From: a virus
Taxonomy: Duplodnaviria; Heunggongvirae; Uroviricota; Caudoviricetes
IMG/VR virus record: IMGVR_UViG_2541047758_000002
Coordinates: 1 to 9,688 of that record
Strand: one strand, 5' to 3'
DNA length: 9,688 nucleotides
The notes beneath the pieces are model-generated. The model searched no databases and had not been told where the DNA came from. It worked only from the letters and a program-made list of their open reading frames with translations. The position numbers and the translations under genes are program-made. Below are positions 1-9,688 of the stretch, piece after piece (the first letter of the stretch is position 1; each line of letters begins with the position of its first letter).

Positions 1-117
1 GAAGAAACCCGGAAAGACGGTAAGAAAATTGATTATCCGGCGCGTCCTCTGCTCGGCTTTACCGGTGAGGATGTGCAGATGATTGAAGAGATTATTCTGG
101 CGCACCTCGACCGTTAG
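1..117 (+). CDS. S: 3' end of tail completion protein (P2 gpS-like); partial, 5' end lies outside the window
   Basis: Frame 1 is open from position 1 to TAG at 115..117 (translation ...GFTGEDVQMIEEIILAHLDR*). It sits directly upstream of the V homolog, as S does in P2. Identity rests mainly on synteny. Confidence 0.55.
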   Translation, partial: EETRKDGKKIDYPARPLLGFTGEDVQMIEEIILAHLDR

Positions 118-136
118 TTGTGCCATTCCCGACACC
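118..136 (+). promoter_or_regulatory. Candidate late-promoter activator site (Ogr/Delta-type) upstream of V
   Basis: TTGTGCCATTCCCGACACC lies between the S stop and the V start, with TGT at 119..121 and ACA at 132..134 (ten intervening bases by my count). A related motif lies upstream of FI. P2 late promoters carry a TGT-N12-ACA dyad near -55. Confidence 0.3.
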
Positions 137-149
137 TCATCGTCACATT

Positions 150-171
150 GCCGCCGGTATGACCCGGCGGC
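150..171 (+). other. Perfect 8-bp stem / 6-nt loop hairpin in the S-V intergenic region
   Basis: GCCGCCGG-tatgac-CCGGCGGC; not followed by a T-run. Confidence 0.3.
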
Positions 172-183
172 ATCCTTCCCGTT

Positions 184-819
184 ATGAACACTCTCGCAAA
201 TATCCAGGAACTCGCGCGCGCACTGCGCAACATGATTCGCACCGGCCTTGTCGTCGAAACCGACCTTAACGCCGGTCGCTGCCGTGTGCAGACCGGCGGC
301 ATGTGCACCGACTGGCTTCAGTGGCTGACCCATCGCGCCGGGCGTTCGCGCACATGGTGGGCACCTTCCGTGGGGGAGCAGGTGCTGATTCTGGCCGTGG
401 GCGGTGAACTTGACACGGCGTTTGTTCTGCCGGGGATTTATTCCGGCGATAACCCCGCGCCGTCTGCGTCGGCGGATGCCCTGCATATCCGTTTCCCTGA
501 CGGGGCGGTGATTGAGTATGAACCTGAAACCAGTGCACTGACGGTAAGCGGAATTAAAACGGCCAGCGTGACGGCTTCTGATTCTGTTACTGCCACGGTG
601 CCGGTGGTCATGGTGAAAGCGTCAACCCGCATCACCCTGGACACACCGGAGGTGGTCTGCACCAACAGGCTGATTACCGGCACGCTGGAAGTACAGAAGG
701 GCGGGACGATGCGCGGCAATATTGAACACACCGGCGGTGAACTCTCATCAAACGGTAAGGTACTGCATACCCATAAACACCCCGGCGACAGCGGCGGCAC
801 AACCGGGAGTCCTCTATGA
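184..819 (+). CDS. V: Baseplate central spike / baseplate assembly protein V (P2 gpV-like)
   Basis: 211-aa ORF, the same length as P2 gpV; the translation (MNTLANIQELARALRNM...HTHKHPGDSGGTTGSPL) matches what I recall of gpV. Stop overlaps the next start (ATGA at 816..819). Confidence 0.9.
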   Translation: MNTLANIQELARALRNMIRTGLVVETDLNAGRCRVQTGGMCTDWLQWLTHRAGRSRTWWAPSVGEQVLILAVGGELDTAFVLPGIYSGDNPAPSASADALHIRFPDGAVIEYEPETSALTVSGIKTASVTASDSVTATVPVVMVKASTRITLDTPEVVCTNRLITGTLEVQKGGTMRGNIEHTGGELSSNGKVLHTHKHPGDSGGTTGSPL

Positions 820-1163
820 CAGCGCGTTATCTTGGAATGAATCGCAGTGATGGCCTGACTGTCACTGACCTTGAGCATATCAGCCAGAGTATCGGCGATA
901 TCCTGCGCACGCCGGTCGGCTCACGGGTGATGCGTCGTGATTACGGCTCATTGCTGGCGTCAATGATTGACCAGCCGCAGACCCCGGCGCTTGAGTTGCA
1001 GATTAAGGTCGCCTGTTACATGGCGGTGCTGAAATGGGAACCCCGCGTCACCCTGTCATCCGTCACCACTGAGCGCAGTTTTGACGGGCGAATGACGGTC
1101 ACGTTAACCGGCCAGCACAACGACACCGGCCAGCCACTTTCGTTAACCATCCCTGTGAGTTGA
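816..1163 (+). CDS. W: Baseplate wedge protein W (P2 gpW-like, T4 gp25 family)
   Basis: 115-aa ORF, the same length as P2 gpW, with its start overlapping the V stop in an ATGA motif; position in the V-W-J-I order. Confidence 0.88.
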   Translation: MTARYLGMNRSDGLTVTDLEHISQSIGDILRTPVGSRVMRRDYGSLLASMIDQPQTPALELQIKVACYMAVLKWEPRVTLSSVTTERSFDGRMTVTLTGQHNDTGQPLSLTIPVS

Positions 1164-1167
1164 AACC

Positions 1168-2076
1168 ATGCCGATTATCGACCTGAACCAGCTACCCGCA
1201 CCGGATGTGGTCGAGGAGCTGGACTTTGAAACCATTCTTGCCGAACGCAAGGCGACACTGATTTCCCTTTACCCGGAAGACCAGCAGGAGGCGGTTGCCC
1301 GTACCCTGACGCTGGAATCCGAGCCTCTCGTCAAACTGCTGGAGGAAAATGCTTATCGTGAGCTTATCTGGCGTCAGCGTGTGAATGAGGCCGCACGGGC
1401 GGTAATGCTGGCCTGTGCCGCCGGTAATGACCTTGATGTGATTGGTGCCAATTACAACACCACGCGCCTGACTATCACCCCGGCAGACGATTCGACCATC
1501 CCGCCGACACCGGCAGTGATGGAATCTGACACCGATTATCGGCTGCGTATTCAGCAGGCGTTTGAAGGTTTAAGCGTTGCCGGGTCGGTGGGTGCCTATC
1601 AGTATCATGGTCGCAGTGCCGACGGGCGCGTCGCAGATATCTCTGTCACCAGTCCGTCTCCGGCCTGCGTCACCATCTCCGTGCTGTCACGTGAAAATAA
1701 CGGTGTCGCATCCGAAGACCTGCTGGCCGTGGTGCGTAACGCCCTTAATGGCGAGGATGTCAGGCCGGTGGCCGACCGCGTGACCGTGCAGTCTGCCGCC
1801 ATTGTTGAATATCAGATAAACGCCACGCTTTACCTTTACCCAGGTCCCGAAAGCGAACCCATCCGCGCTGCTGCCGTGAAAAAACTGGAAGCGTACATCA
1901 CGGCACAGCACCGGCTTGGGCGCGACATCCGTCTGTCTGCCATTTATGCCGCTTTGCATGTGGAAGGCGTGCAGCGTGTCGAACTGACTGCACCTCTGGC
2001 TGACATCGTGCTCAACAGTACGCAGGCGTCTTTCTGTACTGAATACCGCGTCGTGACCGGAGGCTCGGATGAGTGA
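1168..2076 (+). CDS. J: Baseplate assembly protein J (P2 gpJ-like)
   Basis: 302-aa ORF, the same length as P2 gpJ; begins 5 nt after the W stop; synteny. Confidence 0.9.
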   Translation: MPIIDLNQLPAPDVVEELDFETILAERKATLISLYPEDQQEAVARTLTLESEPLVKLLEENAYRELIWRQRVNEAARAVMLACAAGNDLDVIGANYNTTRLTITPADDSTIPPTPAVMESDTDYRLRIQQAFEGLSVAGSVGAYQYHGRSADGRVADISVTSPSPACVTISVLSRENNGVASEDLLAVVRNALNGEDVRPVADRVTVQSAAIVEYQINATLYLYPGPESEPIRAAAVKKLEAYITAQHRLGRDIRLSAIYAALHVEGVQRVELTAPLADIVLNSTQASFCTEYRVVTGGSDE

Positions 2077-2680
2077 TTCGCGCCTGCTGCCGACCGGCTC
2101 ATCACCGCTTGAAGTTGCCGCCGCAAAAGCCTGTGCGGAAATTGAAAAAACGCCGGTCAGTATTCGTGAGCTGTGGAACCCGGACACCTGCCCGGCAAAT
2201 CTGCTGCCGTGGCTGGCGTGGTCATTTTCGGTCGACAGGTGGGATGATAAATGGCCGGAAGCGACCAAACGCGCTGTTATCCGCGATGCGTATTTCATTC
2301 ACTGCCATAAGGGCACTATTGGTGCGATTCGCCGTGTGGTGGAGCCGCTCGGCTATCTGATTGAGGTGAGGGAGTGGTGGCAGCTCAACGAGGAGCCGGG
2401 GACGTTCCGCATCGTTGTTGGCGTGCTTGAGCAGGGTATTACCGAGGAAATGTATCAGGAGCTGGAGCGTCTCGTTGCTGATGCAAAACCTGCAAGCCGC
2501 CATCTGACGGGACTGGCTATCAGTTTAAGTACAACCGGCAACATTTTTGCCGGTGCGGGATGCTATCACGGCGACGCCCTGACGGTTTATCCCTACACCC
2601 CGGAGGCCATTATTGTCGGAGGGGATTATTTCCCGGCCTCGGCCATTCATTTAATTGATAACCTGAGAGTAAACGCATGA
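2069..2680 (+). CDS. I: Baseplate/tail protein I (P2 gpI-like)
   Basis: 203-aa ORF whose ATG at 2069 overlaps the J stop (ATGAGTGA); synteny between J and the tail fibre gene. The start is uncertain because I recall P2 gpI as shorter, but no in-frame internal ATG lies near the expected position. Confidence 0.82.
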   Translation: MSDSRLLPTGSSPLEVAAAKACAEIEKTPVSIRELWNPDTCPANLLPWLAWSFSVDRWDDKWPEATKRAVIRDAYFIHCHKGTIGAIRRVVEPLGYLIEVREWWQLNEEPGTFRIVVGVLEQGITEEMYQELERLVADAKPASRHLTGLAISLSTTGNIFAGAGCYHGDALTVYPYTPEAIIVGGDYFPASAIHLIDNLRVNA

Positions 2681-3957
2681 CAGTGAAATACTACGCCATT
2701 CTGACTAATCAGGGCGCAGCACGGCTGGCTAACGCGACGATGCTCGGCAGTAAGCTGAATCTGACGCAAATGGCCGTTGGTGATGCGAATGGTGTCTTGC
2801 CGACACCAGACCCGGCACAGACAAAACTGATTAACCAGAAACGCATTGCACCGCTGAATCTTCTGAGTGTTGACCCGAATAACCAGAGCCAGATTATTGC
2901 GGAGCAAATCATCCCTGAGAACGAGGGCGGATTCTGGATCCGTGAGATTGGGCTTTATGATGATGAAGGCGTACTCATTGCGGTGGCGAACTGCCCGGAA
3001 ACGTACAAACCGCAGTTGCAGGAAGGCAGCGGTCGTACCCAGACTATCCGCATGATTCTGGTTGTCACGAATACCGAAGCTATCACGCTGAAAATCGACC
3101 CGTCGGTGGTACTGGCGACCCGTAAATACGTGGATGATGAAGTCCTGGAATTAAGGCTGTATGTGGATGACCAGATGAGAAACCATATTGCCGCACAGGA
3201 TCCTCATACCCAGTATGCACAGAAACATAATCCGACATTTACCGGAGAACCAAAAGCGCCGACGCCTGCTGCAGGAAATAACACCACGCGGATTGCGACC
3301 ACTGCGTTTGTTCAGGCGGTTATTACCGCTCTGATTAACGGTGCGCCTGCCACGCTGGATACACTGAAAGAAATTGCCGCAGCCATTAACAATGACCCGA
3401 AATTCAGCACCACCATTAACAATGCGCTGGCAGGTAAACAACCGCTGGACAATACGCTGACTAATTTGAGTGGAAAGGATGTAGCTGGTCTTCTCACATA
3501 CCTTGGAATAGGAGAAACGGGAAAATACGACATTCTGCCAGCATCAAGAGGAGGCACTGGAGCGTCAACTATAGCCGGAGCATTGATAAACTTTGGTCTG
3601 AGTGATTTAGTGACTGCCGGATTAGTACAGGTGGAATCTGGTACAGACTTTATTACTGCTAAGATTCCATTTCTGTCCGGTGGTAGAAAGCGATTCCTGA
3701 TGATACATGCCATCAAGGCGACAATGCCTGCAAATAATAACGGGTATAACCTTACTGTTACATTCCCAACTGCCTATGATAATGCACCGATACCAATTCT
3801 TGGCTCGACCGTAGGGTCGACTTCAACAACGGGTGGTACCACAGAGTCAATGAATATTTCATCAGTCACAAAATCGGGTTGCATCATTTCTTCAGCATGG
3901 CAAACATGGTCTGAGGGACCGGTATATCTTTTAACGATTGGAGGAGTTGCAGCATGA
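2677..3957 (+). CDS. H: Tail fibre protein (P2 gpH-like): constant N-terminal part to about 3503, variable C-terminal part 3505..3957 inside the invertible segment
   Basis: 426-aa ORF with start overlapping the I stop (ATGA). The N-terminus (MTVKYYAILTNQGAARLANA...) is the conserved fibre N-terminal domain shared by P2 H and Mu S-type fibres. The C-terminal third is AT-richer and begins at a hix/gix-like site. Confidence 0.9.
   Translation: MTVKYYAILTNQGAARLANATMLGSKLNLTQMAVGDANGVLPTPDPAQTKLINQKRIAPLNLLSVDPNNQSQIIAEQIIPENEGGFWIREIGLYDDEGVLIAVANCPETYKPQLQEGSGRTQTIRMILVVTNTEAITLKIDPSVVLATRKYVDDEVLELRLYVDDQMRNHIAAQDPHTQYAQKHNPTFTGEPKAPTPAAGNNTTRIATTAFVQAVITALINGAPATLDTLKEIAAAINNDPKFSTTINNALAGKQPLDNTLTNLSGKDVAGLLTYLGIGETGKYDILPASRGGTGASTIAGALINFGLSDLVTAGLVQVESGTDFITAKIPFLSGGRKRFLMIHAIKATMPANNNGYNLTVTFPTAYDNAPIPILGSTVGSTSTTGGTTESMNISSVTKSGCIISSAWQTWSEGPVYLLTIGGVAA
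3491..3516. repeat. Left crossover site of the invertible segment (hix/gix/cix-like 26-bp site), inside the H coding sequence
   Basis: TTCTCACATACC-TT-GGAATAGGAGAA. It matches the reverse complement of the right site (TTTTCTTAAACG-TT-GGTTTAGGAGAA) at 18 of 26 positions, 12 of 14 in the half that lies inside the segment. It has the 12-2-12 architecture of Hin-family recombination sites. Confidence 0.65.
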
Positions 3958-4340
3958 AATATTATTCACCTTCAATTAATGGATTTCCCGAACAAAAGAC
4001 TGATGACAGTATTGAGATCAGTGAAGAGGTCTGGAGAATACTTCTTAGTGAAATTTACTCAGGCCGGGAGTTATTTAACGATGGCGGCGTACCCGCTACC
4101 CGTGTGCCGCAACCTACGCAAGAACAAGTAATTGCAGCCGCAGAAAATGAGCGCCAACGATTGCTGAATTATGCTGATACCGTAATGCTCGACTGGCGTA
4201 CAGAATTGATGCTGGGTGAAATCAGCGACGCCAACAGGGCTAAATTGTCGGCGTGGCTGGCTTATAAAAATCAAGTTAAGTCGGTTGATGTGACAACTGA
4301 CCCTGAGCATGTTAACTGGCCTATTTCCCCGGAGGCGTAG
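3954..4340 (+). CDS. Tail fibre assembly chaperone (P2 gpG / Mu U / Tfa family) for the currently expressed fibre tip
   Basis: 128-aa ORF with start overlapping the H stop (ATGA). Sits immediately downstream of the fibre gene; the C-terminal region (...EHVNWPISPEA) resembles Tfa proteins. Confidence 0.8.
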   Translation: MKYYSPSINGFPEQKTDDSIEISEEVWRILLSEIYSGRELFNDGGVPATRVPQPTQEQVIAAAENERQRLLNYADTVMLDWRTELMLGEISDANRAKLSAWLAYKNQVKSVDVTTDPEHVNWPISPEA

Positions 4341-4752
4341 GCCATTCAATATCTGGCGCACCGGAAGTATCGACCAGTTCCAGTGCGTCCAGATAATCCA
4401 GCCACGAATTATATTGCGCCAGTTCCTCTCCTTTCAGACGACCAATCGCCGCTTTACCAGGCCATTGCTTACTGTTTATGTATTCGTTGACCTGATTAAT
4501 CAATTGCTGCTTTTCCAGTTCGGCTGCGGCAATTTGTTCCTCATGAGTTGGCGGTGGAATATCAATCCATGCTGGCATTCCGTCGATGACACCTCTGTAT
4601 TTTCCTTCTGGTGCTTCCTTCATAAATTCGGCGGCAACAGTGTCGTCAATTTCGATTCCATCATCGGGCCATTCGCCGGATTCCTGATAAGCGATTTTAA
4701 GCTCCACAGGGAAAAACGCATTTTTCTCGGCACTGAAAATATATTTCTGCAT
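4321..4752 (-). CDS. Alternative tail fibre assembly chaperone (Mu U'-like), partner of the silent fibre cassette
   Basis: 143-aa ORF on the - strand, starting 2 nt after the stop of the silent fibre cassette. The C-terminus (...DIEWPTPPGK) is Tfa-like. Its 3' end overlaps the + strand chaperone gene by 20 nt. Confidence 0.8.
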   Translation of the reverse strand: MQKYIFSAEKNAFFPVELKIAYQESGEWPDDGIEIDDTVAAEFMKEAPEGKYRGVIDGMPAWIDIPPPTHEEQIAAAELEKQQLINQVNEYINSKQWPGKAAIGRLKGEELAQYNSWLDYLDALELVDTSGAPDIEWPTPPGK

Positions 4753-4754
4753 TT

Positions 4755-5111
4755 CTACCGTCCTATCGAAATATAACTGAATCTGTATTGCTGTGAGATA
4801 TCACTGGTTGCCACACGCCACGCTGAATTACTGATATGTTCAAAATTTACAGACAAAACCTGCGGGGCAGGATTCGACGGGTCTGACTGAACGGCATCAG
4901 ACATAACACTGACTGAAACCATCGGCTGATTAGGGAATGGTATAGGGAAGTGTCCACTGATAAAGCGGGTCGTGTTTCCTGAAAAAGTGCCAAACTGAAC
5001 AATATATCCACCTGGTAGCCTGAACCATCCCGAACCAGAAGCGAATGCTCCCATATCAGGTATCTGATTATCTCCTGTGCCCACATCCCTTTTCGCCGCT
5101 TCTCCTAAACC
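4755..5111 (-). CDS. Silent alternative tail-fibre C-terminal cassette (Mu S'v-like); lacks its own start and would be expressed only after inversion fuses it to the constant part of H
   Basis: - strand reading frame open from the right crossover site to TAG at 4757..4755. Its first codons after the crossover core (GLGEAAK...) parallel the H codons after the left core (GIGETGK...). Frame arithmetic shows an in-frame fusion after inversion. Confidence 0.7.
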   Translation of the reverse strand, partial: GLGEAAKRDVGTGDNQIPDMGAFASGSGWFRLPGGYIVQFGTFSGNTTRFISGHFPIPFPNQPMVSVSVMSDAVQSDPSNPAPQVLSVNFEHISNSAWRVATSDISQQYRFSYISIGR

Positions 5112-5125
5112 AACGTTTAAGAAAA
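5100..5125. repeat. Right crossover site of the invertible segment (hix/gix/cix-like)
   Basis: TTCTCCTAAACC-AA-CGTTTAAGAAAA. Close to the Hin-family half-site consensus TTxTCxxAAACC with a 2-bp AA core, inverted relative to the left site (core TT on the + strand). Lies 55 bp upstream of the invertase start. Confidence 0.7.
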
Positions 5126-5180
5126 TGCAGAGGTAACAGCTAACTGGCATCATCCCCGGTTTTTATTCAGGGGGATAATC

Positions 5181-5774
5181 ATGCTTATTGGCTATGTACG
5201 CGTGTCAACAAATGACCAGAACACGGAATTGCAGCGTAACGCGCTGGAGTGTGCAGGATGTGAGCTGATTTTTGAGGATAAAATCAGCGGCACGAAGTCC
5301 GACAGGCCGGGACTGAAAAAACTGCTCAGAACATTATCAGCAGGTGACACTCTGGTGGTCTGGAAGCTGGACAGGCTGGGGCGTAGTATGCGGCATCTGG
5401 TCATTCTGGTTGAGGAACTGCGCGAACGCGGCGTTAATTTTCGCAGCCTGACGGATGCTATTGATACCAGCACGCCGATGGGGCGTTTTTTCTTTCATGT
5501 GATGGGTGCCCTGGCTGAAATGGAGCGAGAACTCATTGTCGAGCGGACACGCGCCGGACTGGAAGCGGCCAGAGCCAAAGGTCGTATTGGTGGCGGACGA
5601 CCGAAACTCACTGCGGGTGAGTGGGAGCAGGTCGGACGGTTGCTGGCTGCGGGGGAATCTCGTCAACGTGTGGCGCTGATTTTTGATATTGGTCTGTCCA
5701 CGCTCTATAAAAAATTCCCCTCATCAGCGACAAAGAATAAATTGTGTCATCCCTTAGCCAACCGGGACAAATAG
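5181..5774 (+). CDS. Site-specific serine DNA invertase (Hin/Gin/Cin/Pin family resolvase-invertase)
   Basis: 197-aa ORF; N-terminus MLIGYVRVSTNDQNTELQRNAL... carries the serine-recombinase catalytic motif (YVRVST) and the ...DRLGRS... region; C-terminal helix-turn-helix (...GLSTLYKKFP). Shine-Dalgarno GGGGGA lies 5 nt upstream. Adjacent to the invertible segment. Confidence 0.92.
   Translation: MLIGYVRVSTNDQNTELQRNALECAGCELIFEDKISGTKSDRPGLKKLLRTLSAGDTLVVWKLDRLGRSMRHLVILVEELRERGVNFRSLTDAIDTSTPMGRFFFHVMGALAEMERELIVERTRAGLEAARAKGRIGGGRPKLTAGEWEQVGRLLAAGESRQRVALIFDIGLSTLYKKFPSSATKNKLCHPLANRDK
5742..5763 (+). promoter_or_regulatory. Candidate late-promoter activator site upstream of FI, overlapping the 3' end of the invertase gene
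   Basis: TTGTGTCATCCCTTAGCCAACC about 90 nt upstream of the FI start; shares TTGTG-CAT-CC with the motif upstream of V. Confidence 0.3.
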
Positions 5775-5833
5775 CCTGACATCTCCGGCACAACTGAAAA
5801 TACCACTCACCCATTAACCACGGAGTTAAACGG

Positions 5834-7024
5834 ATGAGTGACTATCATCACGGCGTGCAGGTGCTGGAGATTAACGACGGCACCCGCGTCATTTCCACCG
5901 TATCCACTGCCATTGTTGGCATGGTCTGCACGGCCAGCGATGCGGATGCGGAAACCTTCCCCCTCAATAAACCGGTGCTGATTACCAATGTGCAGAGCGC
6001 AATTGCAAAGGCCGGTAAAAAAGGCACGCTGGCGGCATCGTTGCAGGCCATCGCCGACCAGTCAAAACCGGTCACCGTTGTCGTGCGTGTGGAAGACGGC
6101 ACCGGCGACGACGAGGAAACGAAACTCGCGCAGACCGTTTCCAATATCATCGGCACCACCGACGAAAACGGTCAGTACACCGGACTGAAAGCCCTGCTGG
6201 CGGCGGAGTCGGTAACCGGTGTTAAACCGCGTATTCTCGGCGTGCCGGGACTGGACACCAAAGAGGTGGCGGTTGCACTGGCATCAGTATGTCAGAAGCT
6301 GCGCGCTTTCGGGTATATCAGCGCATGGGGCTGTAAAACCATTTCCGAGGTGAAAGCCTACCGCCAGAATTTCAGCCAGCGTGAGCTGATGGTCATCTGG
6401 CCGGATTTCCTCGCATGGGATACGGTCACCAGTACCACCGCCACCGCGTATGCCACTGCCCGTGCACTGGGCCTGCGCGCTAAAATCGACCAGGAGCAGG
6501 GCTGGCATAAAACGCTGTCCAATGTCGGGGTGAACGGTGTTACCGGCATCAGCGCATCTGTATTCTGGGATTTGCAGGAGTCCGGCACCGATGCTGACCT
6601 GCTTAACGAGTCAGGCGTCACAACGCTGATTCGCCGTGACGGTTTCCGCTTCTGGGGTAACCGTACCTGTTCTGATGACCCGCTGTTCCTCTTTGAAAAC
6701 TACACCCGCACCGCGCAGGTGCTGGCCGATACGATGGCTGAGGCGCACATGTGGGCGGTGGACAAGCCCATCACCGCAACGCTGATTCGCGACATCGTTG
6801 ACGGCATCAATGCCAAATTCCGTGAGCTGAAAACAAACGGCTATATCGTGGATGCGACCTGCTGGTTCAGCGAAGAATCCAACGATGCGGAAACCCTTAA
6901 GGCCGGAAAACTGTATATCGACTACGACTATACCCCGGTGCCTCCTCTTGAAAACCTGACCCTGCGCCAGCGTATTACCGATAAATACCTGGCAAATCTG
7001 GTCACCTCGGTTAACAGCAATTAA
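5834..7024 (+). CDS. FI: Contractile tail sheath protein (P2 gpFI-like)
   Basis: 396-aa ORF, the same length as P2 FI; GGAG ribosome-binding site upstream; followed by the tube gene. Confidence 0.92.
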   Translation: MSDYHHGVQVLEINDGTRVISTVSTAIVGMVCTASDADAETFPLNKPVLITNVQSAIAKAGKKGTLAASLQAIADQSKPVTVVVRVEDGTGDDEETKLAQTVSNIIGTTDENGQYTGLKALLAAESVTGVKPRILGVPGLDTKEVAVALASVCQKLRAFGYISAWGCKTISEVKAYRQNFSQRELMVIWPDFLAWDTVTSTTATAYATARALGLRAKIDQEQGWHKTLSNVGVNGVTGISASVFWDLQESGTDADLLNESGVTTLIRRDGFRFWGNRTCSDDPLFLFENYTRTAQVLADTMAEAHMWAVDKPITATLIRDIVDGINAKFRELKTNGYIVDATCWFSEESNDAETLKAGKLYIDYDYTPVPPLENLTLRQRITDKYLANLVTSVNSN

Positions 7025-7036
7025 GGAGCCTGACCG

Positions 7037-7555
7037 ATGGCAATGCCGCGCAAACTCAAGTTAATGAACGTCTTTCTGAACGGCTACAGCTATCAGGGCG
7101 TTGCAAAGTCCGTCACGCTGCCAAAACTGACCCGTAAGCTCGAAAACTATCGCGGTGCGGGGATGAACGGCAGCGCACCGGTAGACCTCGGCCTTGATGA
7201 CGATGCGCTGTCAATGGAGTGGTCGCTCGGGGGCTTCCCGGATTCGGTTATCTGGGAGCTTTACGCCGCAACCGGTGTGGATGCCGTGCCGATTCGTTTT
7301 GCAGGCTCTTACCAGCGCGACGATACCGGCGAAACGGTGGCCGTCGAAGTGGTCATGCGTGGGCGTCAGAAAGAAGTCGACACCGGCGAGGGTAAACAGG
7401 GAGAAGATACCGAGTCGAAAATCTCCGTGGTCTGCACCTATTTCCGGCTGACGATGGACGGTAAGGGGCTGGTCGAAATTGACACCATCAACATGATTGA
7501 GAAGGTGAACGGCGTCGACCGGCTGGAGCAACACCGCCGCAATATCGGCCTGTGA
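7037..7555 (+). CDS. FII: Tail tube protein (P2 gpFII-like)
   Basis: 172-aa ORF, the same length as P2 FII; strong AGGAG ribosome-binding site at about 7024..7028; synteny after the sheath gene. Confidence 0.92.
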   Translation: MAMPRKLKLMNVFLNGYSYQGVAKSVTLPKLTRKLENYRGAGMNGSAPVDLGLDDDALSMEWSLGGFPDSVIWELYAATGVDAVPIRFAGSYQRDDTGETVAVEVVMRGRQKEVDTGEGKQGEDTESKISVVCTYFRLTMDGKGLVEIDTINMIEKVNGVDRLEQHRRNIGL

Positions 7556-7562
7556 TTTTCAT

Positions 7563-7583
7563 CCGGTCAGCCAGGCTGACCGG
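7563..7583 (+). other. Perfect 9-bp stem / 3-nt loop hairpin in the FII-E intergenic region
   Basis: CCGGTCAGC-cag-GCTGACCGG, 8 nt after the FII stop; followed only by TT. Confidence 0.3.
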
Positions 7584-7611
7584 TTAACCCCGATTCAGAA
7601 GTGAGAAAACC

Positions 7612-7887
7612 ATGAACAAAGAAAATGTCATTACCCTGGACAATCCGGTCAAACGTGGTGAGCAGGTTATCGAACAGGTCACGCTGATGAAACCCAATGC
7701 CGGGACGCTGCGCGGTGTCAGTCTGGCTGCGGTTGCAAACTCCGAAGTCGATGCACTGATTAAGGTGCTGCCGCGCATGACGGCACCGATGCTGACCGAG
7801 CAGGAAGTCGCCGCGCTGGAACTGCCTGACCTTGTGGCGCTGGCCGGTAAGGTGGTCGGTTTTTTGTCGCCGAACTCGGTGCAGTGA
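7612..7887 (+). CDS. E: Tail assembly chaperone E (P2 gpE-like), zero-frame product
   Basis: 91-aa ORF, the same length as P2 gpE, between the tube and tape measure genes; contains the TTTTTTG slippery site near its 3' end. Confidence 0.88.
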   Translation: MNKENVITLDNPVKRGEQVIEQVTLMKPNAGTLRGVSLAAVANSEVDALIKVLPRMTAPMLTEQEVAALELPDLVALAGKVVGFLSPNSVQ

Positions 7888-8039
7888 CGTTTCCAAAAAA
7901 TCTCTCGGTCGATGACCTGATGGCGGATGTGGCAGTGATATTTCACTGGCCGCCATCAGAACTGTATCCCATGAGCCTGACCGAACTCAACACATGGCGC
8001 GAAAAGGCGCTCCGGCGAAGCGGAAACACGAATGAGTAA
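7612..8039 (+). CDS. E: Tail assembly chaperone E+E' made by programmed -1 ribosomal frameshift at 7860..7866
   Basis: The -1 frame downstream of the slippery heptamer is open to TAA at 8037..8039 (...VTFPKNLSVDDLMADVAVIFHWPPSELYPMSLTELNTWREKALRRSGNTNE*). The fusion would be about 142 aa, matching P2 gpE+E'. Confidence 0.75.
7860..7866 (+). promoter_or_regulatory. Slippery heptamer T-TTT-TTG for the -1 frameshift producing E+E'
   Basis: Sequence ttttttg read directly; same heptamer class as used by P2 E/E' and lambda G/GT. Confidence 0.7.
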
Positions 8040-9688
8040 CAATGTAAAATTACAGGTATTGCTCAGGGCTGTTGACCAGGCATCCCGCCCGTTTAAATCC
8101 ATCCGCACAGCGAGTAAGTCGCTGTCGGGGGATATCCGGGAAACACAAAAATCACTGCGCGAGCTGAACGGTCACGCATCCCGTATTGAGGGATTTCGCA
8201 AGACCAGTGCACAGCTCGCCGTGACTGGTCATGCACTTGAAAAGGCACGGCAGGAGGCCGAAGCCCTTGCCACACAGTTTAAAAATACCGAACGACCGAC
8301 CCGTGCTCAGGCGAAAGTGCTGGAATCCGCAAAGCGTGCGGTGGAGGACTTACAGGCGAAATATAACCGCCTGACGGATTCCGTTAAACGCCAGCAGCGG
8401 GAACTGGCCGCTGTGGGAATTAATACCCGCAATCTTGCACATGATGAGCAGGGACTGAAAAAACGTATCAGTGAAACCACCGCACAACTTAACCGTCAGC
8501 GCGACGCGCTGGCGCGTGTCAGTGCGCAACAGGCAAAACTTAACGCAGTAAAACAGCGTTATCAGGCCGGAAAGGAACTGGCCGGAAATATGGCCTCAGT
8601 AGGCGCTGCCGGTGTGGGGATTGCGGCGGCGGGAACGATGGCCGGAGTTAAGTTACTGATGCCCGGTTATGAGTTTGCGCAGAAAAACTCAGAATTGCAG
8701 GCCGTGCTCGGAGTGGCAAAAGACTCCGCCGAAATGACCGCACTACGCAAGCAGGCGCGCCAGCTTGGCGACAACACCGCCGCCTCGGCGGATGATGCAG
8801 CCGGTGCGCAGATTATCATTGCGAAAGCCGGCGGGGATGTTGATGCCATTCAGGCGGCAACGCCGGTCACGCTGAATATGGCGCTGGCGAACCGTCGCAC
8901 GATGGAAGAAAACGCCGCCCTGTTGATGGGGATGAAATCCGCCTTTCAGCTTTCAAACGATAAGGTCGCTCATATCGGGGATGTTCTCTCCATGACGATG
9001 AACAAAACCGCCGCCGATTTTGACGGCATGAGCGATGCGCTGACCTATGCCGCACCTGTGGCAAAAAATGCCGGTGTCAGCATTGAAGAAACCGCCGCAA
9101 TGGTCGGGGCGCTGCATGATGCAAAAATTACCGGTTCAATGGCGGGGACGGGAAGCCGTGCCGTGTTAAGCCGTCTGCAGGCACCGACGGGAAAAGCATG
9201 GGATGCACTGAAAGAGCTTGGTGTGAAAACCTCAGACAGCAAGGGAAACACCCGGCCAATATTTACCATTCTGAAAGAAATGCAGGCCAGTTTTGAGAAA
9301 AACCGGCTCGGTACTGCCCAGCAGGCTGAATACATGAAAACTATTTTCGGGGAGGAGGCCAGCTCAGCCGCCGCCGTGCTGATGACTGCCGCCTCAACCG
9401 GAAAGCTGGACAAACTGACCGCTGCGTTTAAAGCCTCGGACGGGAAGACCGCCGAGCTGGTAAATATCATGCAGGACAACCTCGGCGGTGACTTTAAAGA
9501 GTTTCAGTCCGCTTATGAGGCGGTGGGGACTGACCTGTTTGACCAGCAGGAAGGCGCACTGCGTAATCTCACACAGACGGCCACAAAGTATGTGTTAAAA
9601 CTCGATGGCTGGATCCAGAAAAACAAATCACTGGCGTCAACCATCGGCCTCATTGCCGGTGGCGCACTGGCGCTTACTGGCATCATCG
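8032..9688 (+). CDS. T: Tail tape measure protein (P2 gpT-like), N-terminal 552 codons; continues past the window end
   Basis: ATG at 8032 inside the E' stop (AATGAGTAA). The frame stays open to the window end (MSNNVKLQVLLRAVDQASRPFK...). Coiled-coil-like, Ala/Gln-rich composition typical of tape measure proteins; synteny after E/E'. Confidence 0.9.
   Translation, partial: MSNNVKLQVLLRAVDQASRPFKSIRTASKSLSGDIRETQKSLRELNGHASRIEGFRKTSAQLAVTGHALEKARQEAEALATQFKNTERPTRAQAKVLESAKRAVEDLQAKYNRLTDSVKRQQRELAAVGINTRNLAHDEQGLKKRISETTAQLNRQRDALARVSAQQAKLNAVKQRYQAGKELAGNMASVGAAGVGIAAAGTMAGVKLLMPGYEFAQKNSELQAVLGVAKDSAEMTALRKQARQLGDNTAASADDAAGAQIIIAKAGGDVDAIQAATPVTLNMALANRRTMEENAALLMGMKSAFQLSNDKVAHIGDVLSMTMNKTAADFDGMSDALTYAAPVAKNAGVSIEETAAMVGALHDAKITGSMAGTGSRAVLSRLQAPTGKAWDALKELGVKTSDSKGNTRPIFTILKEMQASFEKNRLGTAQQAEYMKTIFGEEASSAAAVLMTAASTGKLDKLTAAFKASDGKTAELVNIMQDNLGGDFKEFQSAYEAVGTDLFDQQEGALRNLTQTATKYVLKLDGWIQKNKSLASTIGLIAGGALALTGII

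Follow-up and report, generated by a model that had tools for sequence, protein, structure and literature searches.

A Pin-type invertible tail-fibre segment in a P2-like prophage, with both orientations found among natural relatives

The stretch of phage DNA analysed here (9,688 nucleotides; hereafter the window) contains a genuine but ordinary phage host-range switch, in which a Pin/Gin-type enzyme flips a 1.6-kb tail-fibre segment in a P2-like prophage. The prophage is very probably a Peduovirus relative in which a Pin-type inversion module of the Din family has replaced the G and Z/fun region of P2 (Table 1). An initial annotation had proposed that the locus shares the architecture of the Mu G, P1 C and e14 P segments, namely a fibre gene split into constant and variable parts, two tips each accompanied by its own chaperone in mirror orientation, a segment of about 1.6 kb bounded by inverted 26-bp sites, and a serine invertase gene 55 bp to the right of the segment. 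Every one of these elements was tested and found: the constant and variable parts are fused in frame in both orientations, the mirrored tip and chaperone pairs lie where they had been placed, the segment measures 1,611 bp between the sites at 3491-3516 and 5100-5125, and the invertase ORF does start 55 bp from the right site.

Table 1. Features of the invertible tail-fibre locus and its surroundings (window coordinates)
Feature	Coordinates	Strand	Basis or remarks
Baseplate gene V	184-819	+	P2-type; in one operon with W, J and I, upstream of the fibre gene
Baseplate gene W	816-1163	+	P2-type; same operon
Baseplate gene J	1168-2076	+	P2-type; same operon
Baseplate gene I	2069-2680	+	P2-type; same operon
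Hc, constant part of tail-fibre gene H	2677-3502	+	275 codons plus 1 nt; ends in the outer half of the left site
Left crossover site, pix/gix-like	3491-3516		Central TT at 3503-3504; inside H coding sequence, codons ...LLTYLGIGE...
Invertible segment	3503-5113		1,611 bp; flip of exactly this interval matches L015 and L017
Sv, variable C-terminus of H in expressed position	3505-3957	+	Continuous ORF 2677-3957
U, tail-fibre assembly chaperone for Sv, 128 aa	3954-4340	+	PF02413 Caudo_TAP, E 1e-19
U', chaperone for the alternative tip, 143 aa	4321-4752	-	PF02413, E 1e-34; silent in sequenced orientation
Sv', alternative variable C-terminus	4755-5111	-	PF21882 Gp53-like_C, E 2e-9 to 3e-9; silent in sequenced orientation
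Right crossover site	5100-5125		Central AA at 5112-5113; 24/26 to consensus
Din-family serine DNA invertase, 197 aa	5181-5774	+	PF00239 and PF02796; outside the segment, fixed orientation
Putative Fis-dependent recombinational enhancer	5199-5270		Within the 5' end of the invertase gene; position and homology
P2 pF late-promoter region (activator-binding site and FI leader)	5737-5833	+	P2 homology
Tail gene FI	5834-7024	+	P2-type; Pfam sheath domains, P2 identity
Tail gene FII	7037-7555	+	P2-type; P2 identity
Tail gene E	7612-7887	+	P2-type; P2 identity
E'	via slip site 7858-7866	+	
T	from 8032 past window end	+	

In the sequenced orientation the H ORF runs uninterrupted through the left crossover site and encodes a protein of 426 aa. 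Its constant part matches the tail-collar fibre N-terminus (PF12571, E 2e-62), is about 97% shared with P2-like prophages up to position 3516, and shows 41% aa identity to the N-terminus of P2 H. The expressed tip, Sv, is 98.9% identical to the tip of an e14-like prophage (L002) and gives a weak, below-threshold match to Gp53-like_C (E 0.0014). The two tips had been described as unrelated; a pairwise comparison of Sv with Sv' indeed recovered no significant similarity (E 0.25), but the term is too strong, as both match the Gp53-like_C profile of Pfam. The start codon of U overlaps the stop codon of H (ATGA), and U' is 32% identical to U. When the segment is flipped in silico at the central dinucleotide, Sv' joins Hc in frame to give a 394-aa H', followed by U'.

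The left site (TTCTCACATACC TT GGAATAGGAGAA) and the right site (TTCTCCTAAACC AA CGTTTAAGAAAA) stand in inverted orientation with matching central dinucleotides and a mutual complementarity of 19/26, the left one agreeing with the Din consensus at 23 of 26 positions. A scan with this gix/cix/pix consensus (TTCTCNNAAACCWWGGTTTNNGAGAA), allowing up to three mismatches, returned two matches in the whole window, the left and right sites only, against a chance expectation of 0.00 derived from 200 shuffles, and the hix/gix-like character noted earlier is thereby borne out. The identical scan finds exactly two sites each in e14, Mu, P1 and every P2-like relative, and those in Mu and P1 coincide with the annotated boundaries of the G and C segments (gix and cix). 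The right site is nearly identical to the e14 pix site beside pinE (TTCTCCCAAACCAACGTTTATGAAAA). As a point against an active switch, the sites are imperfect, the inner half of the left one reading ...TATTCC in place of ...AAACC. The outer half of the left site belongs to the P2-like H gene. A repeat finder missed both sites at its default seed of 9, and at a seed of 6 it reports an inverted repeat of 35 nt and 71%.

Both orientations occur in nature. A lookup of the exact 197-aa invertase showed six loci (L012-L017), of which L012, L013, L014 and L016 have the window's orientation and L015 and L017 the flipped one. With its segment flipped, the window is colinear with L015 (99.92% over 4,932 nt) and with L017, an independent contig (100% over 1,739 nt), and the fibre encoded by L015 is a 394-aa protein identical to the in-silico prediction. 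The crossover sites of these two loci are the predicted reciprocal hybrids, with the inner half of the left site swapped, and they confine the crossover to 4 nt, the TTGG at 3503-3506. Thus, the predicted inversion has occurred, by reciprocal exchange at the site centres, as seen between different assemblies; furthermore, it is recent relative to the invertase allele, because the orientations differ among prophages with 4 mismatches in 4.9 kb and an identical invertase. On a wider scale, the fused Hc-Sv'-U' junction occurs colinearly in 23 complete genomes of E. coli and U'-Sv' adjoins the invertase in 117 genomes, and similarly organised cassettes, as judged by gene order and sizes, lie in opposite orientations in L001 and L007/L008. 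In a third assembly the contig L016 begins at window position 3508, within the left crossover site, a break that could arise from mixed-orientation reads.

These observations also bear on a static cassette exchange, in which the fibre modules of two phages were joined tail to tail, with an incidental likeness of the sites and no inversion. The region is certainly mosaic: L001 and L003 share positions 1-3516 and 4329 onward with the window and not 3517-4328, the e14-like prophage L002 shares 3492-5719, comprising the whole segment and the invertase, at about 91%, and the GC content of the segment is 45-47% versus 56% in the backbone. However, mosaicism alone would not be expected to generate a flipped isoform with half-sites exchanged reciprocally at exactly the central nucleotides, the agreement of the sites with the Din consensus greatly exceeds chance, and an intact Din invertase gene adjoins the segment. 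The static account is contradicted by the colinear flipped matches to L015 and L017 and by their hybrid sites, and we regard it as extremely improbable.

The enzyme and the sites of this invertible segment belong to the Din family of Fis/enhancer-dependent serine DNA invertases; the earlier label "Hin-family" is correct as a family name, the nearest member being Pin. A protein search with the product of 5181-5774 recovered the Resolvase (PF00239, E 3e-52) and HTH_7 (PF02796, E 4e-11) domains, with the Gin crystal structure 3uj3 as the best PDB match (residues 1-182, E 1.5e-92). Amino acid identity is 86% to e14 Pin, 78% to P1 Cin and 76% to Mu Gin, and the serine nucleophile is conserved, Ser9 aligning with Ser9 of Gin. 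The Fis-contacting residues Q151/R154/L155 of Hin and the basic helix-B positions 47/48/51 are conserved in DNA invertases and not in resolvases (PMC3798978); their equivalents here are Q150/R153/L154, which are invariant in the alignment, and K46/K47/R50 for K47/K48/K51 of Hin. Compared with e14 Pin the enzyme bears a 13-aa C-terminal extension, the last 7 codons and stop of which are P2 backbone sequence.

One substitution raises the question of whether the switch is a relic or reliant on another enzyme. Position 139 is Gly in the window's invertase and Arg in all six aligned relatives, which include Pin, Gin, Cin and an allele in L001 that is 99% identical; this Arg corresponds to Arg140 of the minor-groove arm of Hin. 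The window's allele could be weakened. Were it to have no activity or very little, the fibre of this strain would in effect be fixed in the Hc-Sv state, and the differences in orientation would stem from rare events in the past or from inversion in trans, which could be catalysed by another Din invertase such as e14 Pin or that of another prophage; members of the Din family are well known to complement one another. The prevalence of the window's orientation among the loci with the exact allele (4/6) would fit such a locked state, as would the result of a search for a sigma-70-like promoter upstream of the invertase gene, which detected none. Against this, prophages that are almost identical to each other and encode the same allele display both orientations, Arg140 directly follows Gly139 so that a Gly-Arg arm may be kept (GGGRPK in the window; GGRRPK or GGRPPK in the relatives), the remaining catalytic and Fis-contact residues are all intact, and the start of the L016 contig at 3508 may reflect reads of mixed orientation. 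A relic or dependent switch appears very unlikely to us, and this particular allele is presumably active, if perhaps not fully.

In an active switch of this kind, dimers of the invertase would bind both 26-bp sites and host Fis would presumably bind the enhancer within the 5' end of the invertase gene. The putative enhancer corresponds to the P1 enhancer annotated at cin nt 19-90, and contains two G-N13-C cores (5202-5216 and 5251-5265) with a spacing of about 48-49 bp; its identity of 57/72 to P1 and 62/72 to e14 is confounded by the fact that the stretch is coding sequence, and this conservation is therefore not independent evidence for an enhancer. The invertase would then cut each site with a 2-bp stagger at its centre and rotate the strands, thereby inverting 3503-5113. 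In the sequenced orientation the V-operon transcript would encode Hc-Sv (426 aa) and the chaperone U, and after inversion it would encode Hc-Sv' (394 aa, with the gp53-like tip) and the chaperone U'. A population of lysogens would be expected to be mixed, and should release virions of two presumably differing receptor specificities.

The surrounding genes display the P2-like (Peduovirus) cluster order V W J I H ... FI FII E E+E' T, together with the translational frameshift site and the pF region. The V-W-J-I stretch is 94.3% identical to P2 at the nucleotide level over 184-2505, with a Pfam Tail_P2_I match for 2069-2680; the gene-by-gene Pfam families of the baseplate genes were taken from the identical locus L014. 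DNA homology to P2 is absent from 2506 to 5753 and returns at 5754, with 97.6% nucleotide identity over 5754-9688, a stretch that includes a slip site (GGTTTTTTG) identical to that of P2 and a T ORF that is open to the window end. As the initial annotation had pointed out, P2 has G and Z/fun at this position; the gene order of canonical P2 here is H, G, fun(Z), FI. Its further claim that a fixed tip was replaced holds as to the replacement but not as to the tip alone: H differs from P2 throughout, as does the 3' end of I, and more than the fibre tip has therefore been exchanged. The invertase ORF terminates within the activator-binding part of the pF region, the upstream part of this region overlapping its last codons; the activator site and transcription start annotated in P2 (17555-17583 and 17626) correspond to about 5737-5765 and about 5808 of the window. 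Invertase expression could be coupled to late-gene activation via this overlap, although this goes beyond what was shown.

Homology with the sister P2-like prophages stops at the left site and returns midway between the convergent chaperone genes. The intervening Sv+U half (3517-4328) is found in only 3 of 5,426 complete E. coli genomes. As this half is rare and differs from the P2-like relatives, the cassette is a new combination of halves each found elsewhere. The left site is itself hybrid, joining an outer half of P2 type to an inner half of e14 type, and the homology breakpoints with L001/L003 and with L002 coincide with it. Given this hybrid nature, and that homology to L002 begins at the very site where that to the sister prophages ends, it is conceivable, if doubtful, that phages of unrelated types exchange fibre cassettes at the Din crossover site, which would act as a portable junction. 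This proposal goes beyond what was shown, and earlier studies of tail-fibre mosaicism, reportedly those of Haggard-Ljungquist in 1992 and Sandmeier in 1994, had in large part anticipated it.

The closest invertase is that of the e14 P-segment of E. coli K-12 (Pin, pinE), which has the layout Sc, Sv, U, U', Sv', invertase in common with the window and for which inversion has been shown experimentally (PMC4272514). Unlike the window with its P2-type myovirus tail cluster, e14 has baseplate genes of its own type (YmfQ and others), and the tips and chaperones of K-12 e14 are other sequences, except for part of one chaperone. Among P2-like elements, the prophages of EPEC E2348/69, Peduovirus pro483, Peduovirus magyaro "P2" of O157:H43 T22 and Salmonella phage MET_P1_103_31 likewise carry an invertible locus between H and FI, with an invertase of 96-99% aa identity and a backbone of 93-97.6% nucleotide identity to the window; they differ from it in the Sv+U half. 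Deposited records of related P2-like phages annotate a DNA invertase, inversion-based phase variation of the tail fibre in the EPEC P2-like prophages was shown by whole-genome sequencing and PCR (PMC4272514), and the invertase has been noted to occur often as cargo at the Z/fun hotspot of P2 (bioRxiv 10.1101/2024.10.15.618418). The Mu G (Gin) and P1 C (Cin) systems similarly have a fibre gene split at a 26-bp site, mirrored tip-plus-chaperone pairs and an invertase just outside, but their segments are much larger (3.0 kb in Mu and 4.2 kb in P1, versus 1.6 kb here), their Sv parts are unrelated to the window's tips, and in P1 the segment separates the invertase gene from the constant part of S. 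Salmonella Hin, of the same enzyme subfamily, also recombines 26-bp sites through a 2-bp crossover at their centre; its enhancer lies within the invertase gene, where the putative one is placed here (PMC3798978). However, Hin flips a flagellin promoter and its gene lies inside the H segment, whereas here a coding fusion is switched by an invertase encoded outside.

Invertible tail-fibre switches are textbook biology. The invertible fibre switch of P2-like prophages is an already known system, and, with the presence and activity of such switches in P2-like E. coli prophages published, the present case carries little weight as a discovery. The natural orientation pair nonetheless provides a worked example in which a serine-recombinase crossover is located to 4 nt from public assemblies alone. 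The locus is also of practical use in three respects. In annotation, RefSeq relatives present the silent tip as a "gp53-like domain-containing protein" standing on its own and label the invertase generically as a "recombinase family protein". In assembly quality control, contigs that break or differ in orientation at these sites reflect biology and not errors. Finally, in host-range prediction, such prophages should be credited with two receptor-binding proteins.

The 1,611-bp segment at 3503-5113 very probably functions as an active Pin-type switch that selects one of two fibre tips, each with its own chaperone; this reading is based on sequence comparisons. The sites, coding units and invertase of the initial annotation were checked on the sequence and its coordinates proved accurate. 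Features are listed in the table below, in which Sv and Sv' are the expressed and silent C-termini of the tail-fibre gene H, and U and U' their chaperones.

Coordinates of the tail genes and of the invertible cassette
Feature	Position	Strand	Description
V	184-819		P2-type tail gene
W	816-1163		P2-type tail gene
J	1168-2076		P2-type tail gene
I	2069-2680		P2-type tail gene
H	2677-3957		tail fibre
Left site	3491-3516		TTCTCACATACC TT GGAATAGGAGAA
Sv	ends 3957		expressed fibre tip, in the H reading frame
U	3954-4340		chaperone, PF02413
U'	4321-4752	minus	chaperone, PF02413
Sv'	4755-5111	minus	silent tip, Gp53-like_C
Right site	5100-5125		TTCTCCTAAACC AA CGTTTAAGAAAA
FI	5834-7024		P2-type tail gene
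FII	7037-7555		P2-type tail gene
E	7612-7887		P2-type tail gene
E'	runs on to 8039		via the E/E+E' programmed -1 frameshift (slip) site GGTTTTTTG at 7858-7866, exactly as in P2
T	8032 to past window end		tape measure

The two 26-bp crossover sites stand in inverted orientation, with 19 of 26 positions complementary and matching central dinucleotides. A repeat search misses both at the default seed of 9 and detects them with a seed of 6. When the consensus TTCTCNNAAACCWWGGTTTNNGAGAA was applied with at most three mismatches, they were the only matches in the window, and none arose in 200 shuffles, which bears out the proposed resemblance to known recombinase sites. A strict regular expression matched nothing; a scan scored against this consensus took its place, and e14, Mu, P1 and nine loci of P2-like or e14-like type each yielded exactly two sites, which in Mu and P1 fall where the G and C segments are annotated to begin and end. 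A third or cryptic site, as in Min- or shufflon-like multi-inversion systems, is unsupported: the single weak candidate, at 3581-3606 inside Sv (18/26 to the consensus of the Din family of Fis/enhancer-dependent serine invertases, central TT), is probably a chance match.

In-silico inversion of 3503-5113 makes the constant part of H (Hc) read in frame into Sv', giving a 394-aa product (...LLTYLG|LGEAAKRD...) with U' beginning two bases after it. Contigs encoding the exact 197-aa invertase were looked up and orientation was scored on six of the 12. Among those listed, four have the window orientation (L012, L013, L014 and L016), and two are flipped, L015 (GCA_000457635.1) and L017 (run SRR958209), each encoding a 394-aa H followed by a 143-aa chaperone. 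L015 is colinear with the in-silico flip at 99.92% over 4,932 nt, and its H translates exactly to the predicted protein; L017 matches at 100% over 1,739 nt. Both carry sites recombined reciprocally as predicted, TTCTCACATACC TT GGTTTAGGAGAA and TTCTCCTATTCC AA CGTTTAAGAAAA. It is this reciprocal exchange of half-sites that contradicts a static mosaic in which no inversion takes place, an explanation we regard as barely credible. The flanking half-sites can be told apart by the base immediately outward of the central dinucleotide and by the third base inward of it, which limits the exchange to four bases, TTGG (3503-3506). Hin and Gin make 2-bp staggered cuts, with which this exchange zone is consistent.

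Complete E. coli genomes agree with this: the fused Hc-Sv'-U' junction occurs colinearly in 23 and U'-Sv' adjoining the invertase in 117. Similarly organised cassettes lie in opposite orientations in the related loci L001 and L007/L008, as judged by gene order and sizes only. The contig of L016 (GCA_043390775.1) begins at window position 3508, inside the left site, a break that mixed-orientation reads could produce. In the flipped scaffold L015 (653-1422), an N-gap links the locus to part of a different tail-fibre cassette. The two cases are hints that inversion or repeated cassettes made the assembly ambiguous.

The invertase gene starts 55 bp past the right site. As the initial annotation had anticipated, a protein search of 5181-5774 places its 197-aa product in the Hin/Gin/Cin/Pin family: it comprises resolvase and HTH_7 domains and aligns over residues 1-182 with crystallised Mu Gin (E 1.5e-92). 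Sister P2-like prophages encode invertases 96-99% identical to it; among the named enzymes, e14 Pin is nearest at 86%, ahead of P1 Cin (78%) and Mu Gin (76%). Ser9 is conserved, and the residues conserved in Fis/enhancer-dependent invertases, Hin Q151/R154/L155 and 47/48/51 (McLean et al., PMC3798978), correspond here to Q150/R153/L154 and K46/K47/R50. Nucleotides 19-90 of the gene (5199-5270) are the counterpart of the annotated P1 cin enhancer (57/72 identical) and include a pair of G-N13-C cores spaced about 48-49 bp; we infer a recombinational enhancer here, treating it as putative because the stretch is coding sequence. A consensus scan found no invertase promoter between 5100 and 5180.

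Codon 139 (5595-5597) specifies Gly, with Arg in all six relatives aligned, among them Pin, Gin, Cin and a 99%-identical sister allele; the arm reads GGGRPK here versus GGRRPK, and an Arg stands at position 140. We take the replaced residue to match the minor-groove-arm Arg140 of Hin. The substitution might have crippled the enzyme, in which case the flips would be historical or catalysed in trans. This is improbable, given that prophages with the identical allele occur in both orientations with just 4 mismatches in 4.9 kb. The exact Gly139 allele is present on 12 public contigs, with both segment orientations, and is thus not a sequencing error.

The initial annotation had described two unrelated fibre C-termini. 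Sv and Sv' indeed lack significant pairwise similarity, but the wording is slightly too strong, as both reach the Gp53-like_C family, Sv below threshold only (E 0.0014). U and U' are 32% identical. The silent Sv' also appears as a free-standing 132-aa ORF (4755-5153, minus) whose ATG start (5153) lies outside the segment, and which is named "gp53-like domain-containing protein" in RefSeq relatives; this ORF is an annotation artefact of an unexpressed half-gene. Shuffled sequences fold just as well as the stretch where the chaperone genes converge (4296-4366) and as the invertase leader (5126-5185), with z of +0.1, +0.6 and -0.5, which lends no support to a terminator or hairpin between U and U' or to structure in the leader.

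The contig between two N-gaps of scaffold KE699873.1 (draft assembly GCA_000457655.1) is 100% identical to the window, and the nearest relatives are E. coli P2-like prophages and Peduovirus phages. In this locus (L014), the first 95 window bases are duplicated across a 10-N gap (811-820), and T is interrupted by a second N-gap (10509-11458) and not truly truncated. DNA homology to canonical P2 spans 184-2505 (94.3%) and 5754-9688 (97.6%); the intervening 2506-5753 is foreign to P2, where the same interval is annotated as the end of I, then H, G and fun(Z). The fixed P2 fibre tip was thus replaced, as proposed, but the replacement is larger: 2506-3490, with the 3' end of I and the constant part of H, lacks DNA homology, and the N-terminus of H shows about 41% protein identity to P2 H. 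P2 homology resumes 21 nt ahead of the invertase stop codon, so that the last seven codons and TAG are P2 backbone, contributing to a 13-aa C-terminal extension relative to Pin. They fall within the P2-annotated pF activator-binding region (overlap 5737-5774), and the upstream element of this late promoter therefore overlaps invertase coding sequence.

The region is a mosaic. The sister P2-like loci L001 and L003 share 1-3516 and 4329 onward, their own Sv+U half being different; the e14-like prophage L002, with Mu/e14-type baseplate genes, shares 3492-5719, the entire segment plus invertase. Homology to relatives breaks exactly at the left site and between the convergent chaperone genes (4329). 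The inner half of the left site is identical to that of L002, and this sharing pattern marks the site as a hybrid with an outer half of the P2 lineage. The GC content of the segment is 45-47% versus 56% for the backbone. The Sv+U half is rare: of the complete E. coli genomes, 5,426 in number, 3 have it. The whole 2677-5830 combination is absent from complete E. coli genomes (best coverage 75%).

In function and family affiliation the switch belongs with the Din inversion systems, Pin being the nearest named member. In EPEC, two P2-like prophages phase-vary through inversion of the tail-fibre locus, as established by sequencing and PCR (Goldberg et al. 2014, PMC4272514), and a 2024 preprint (bioRxiv 10.1101/2024.10.15.618418) records that the P2 Z/fun hotspot often contains invertases, along with inversion of neighbouring genes. 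Several deposited Peduovirus genomes carry an annotated invertase. The initial observation is correct, and such a switch in P2-like prophages is already known; what this prophage adds is solely its particular pairing of tip cassettes.
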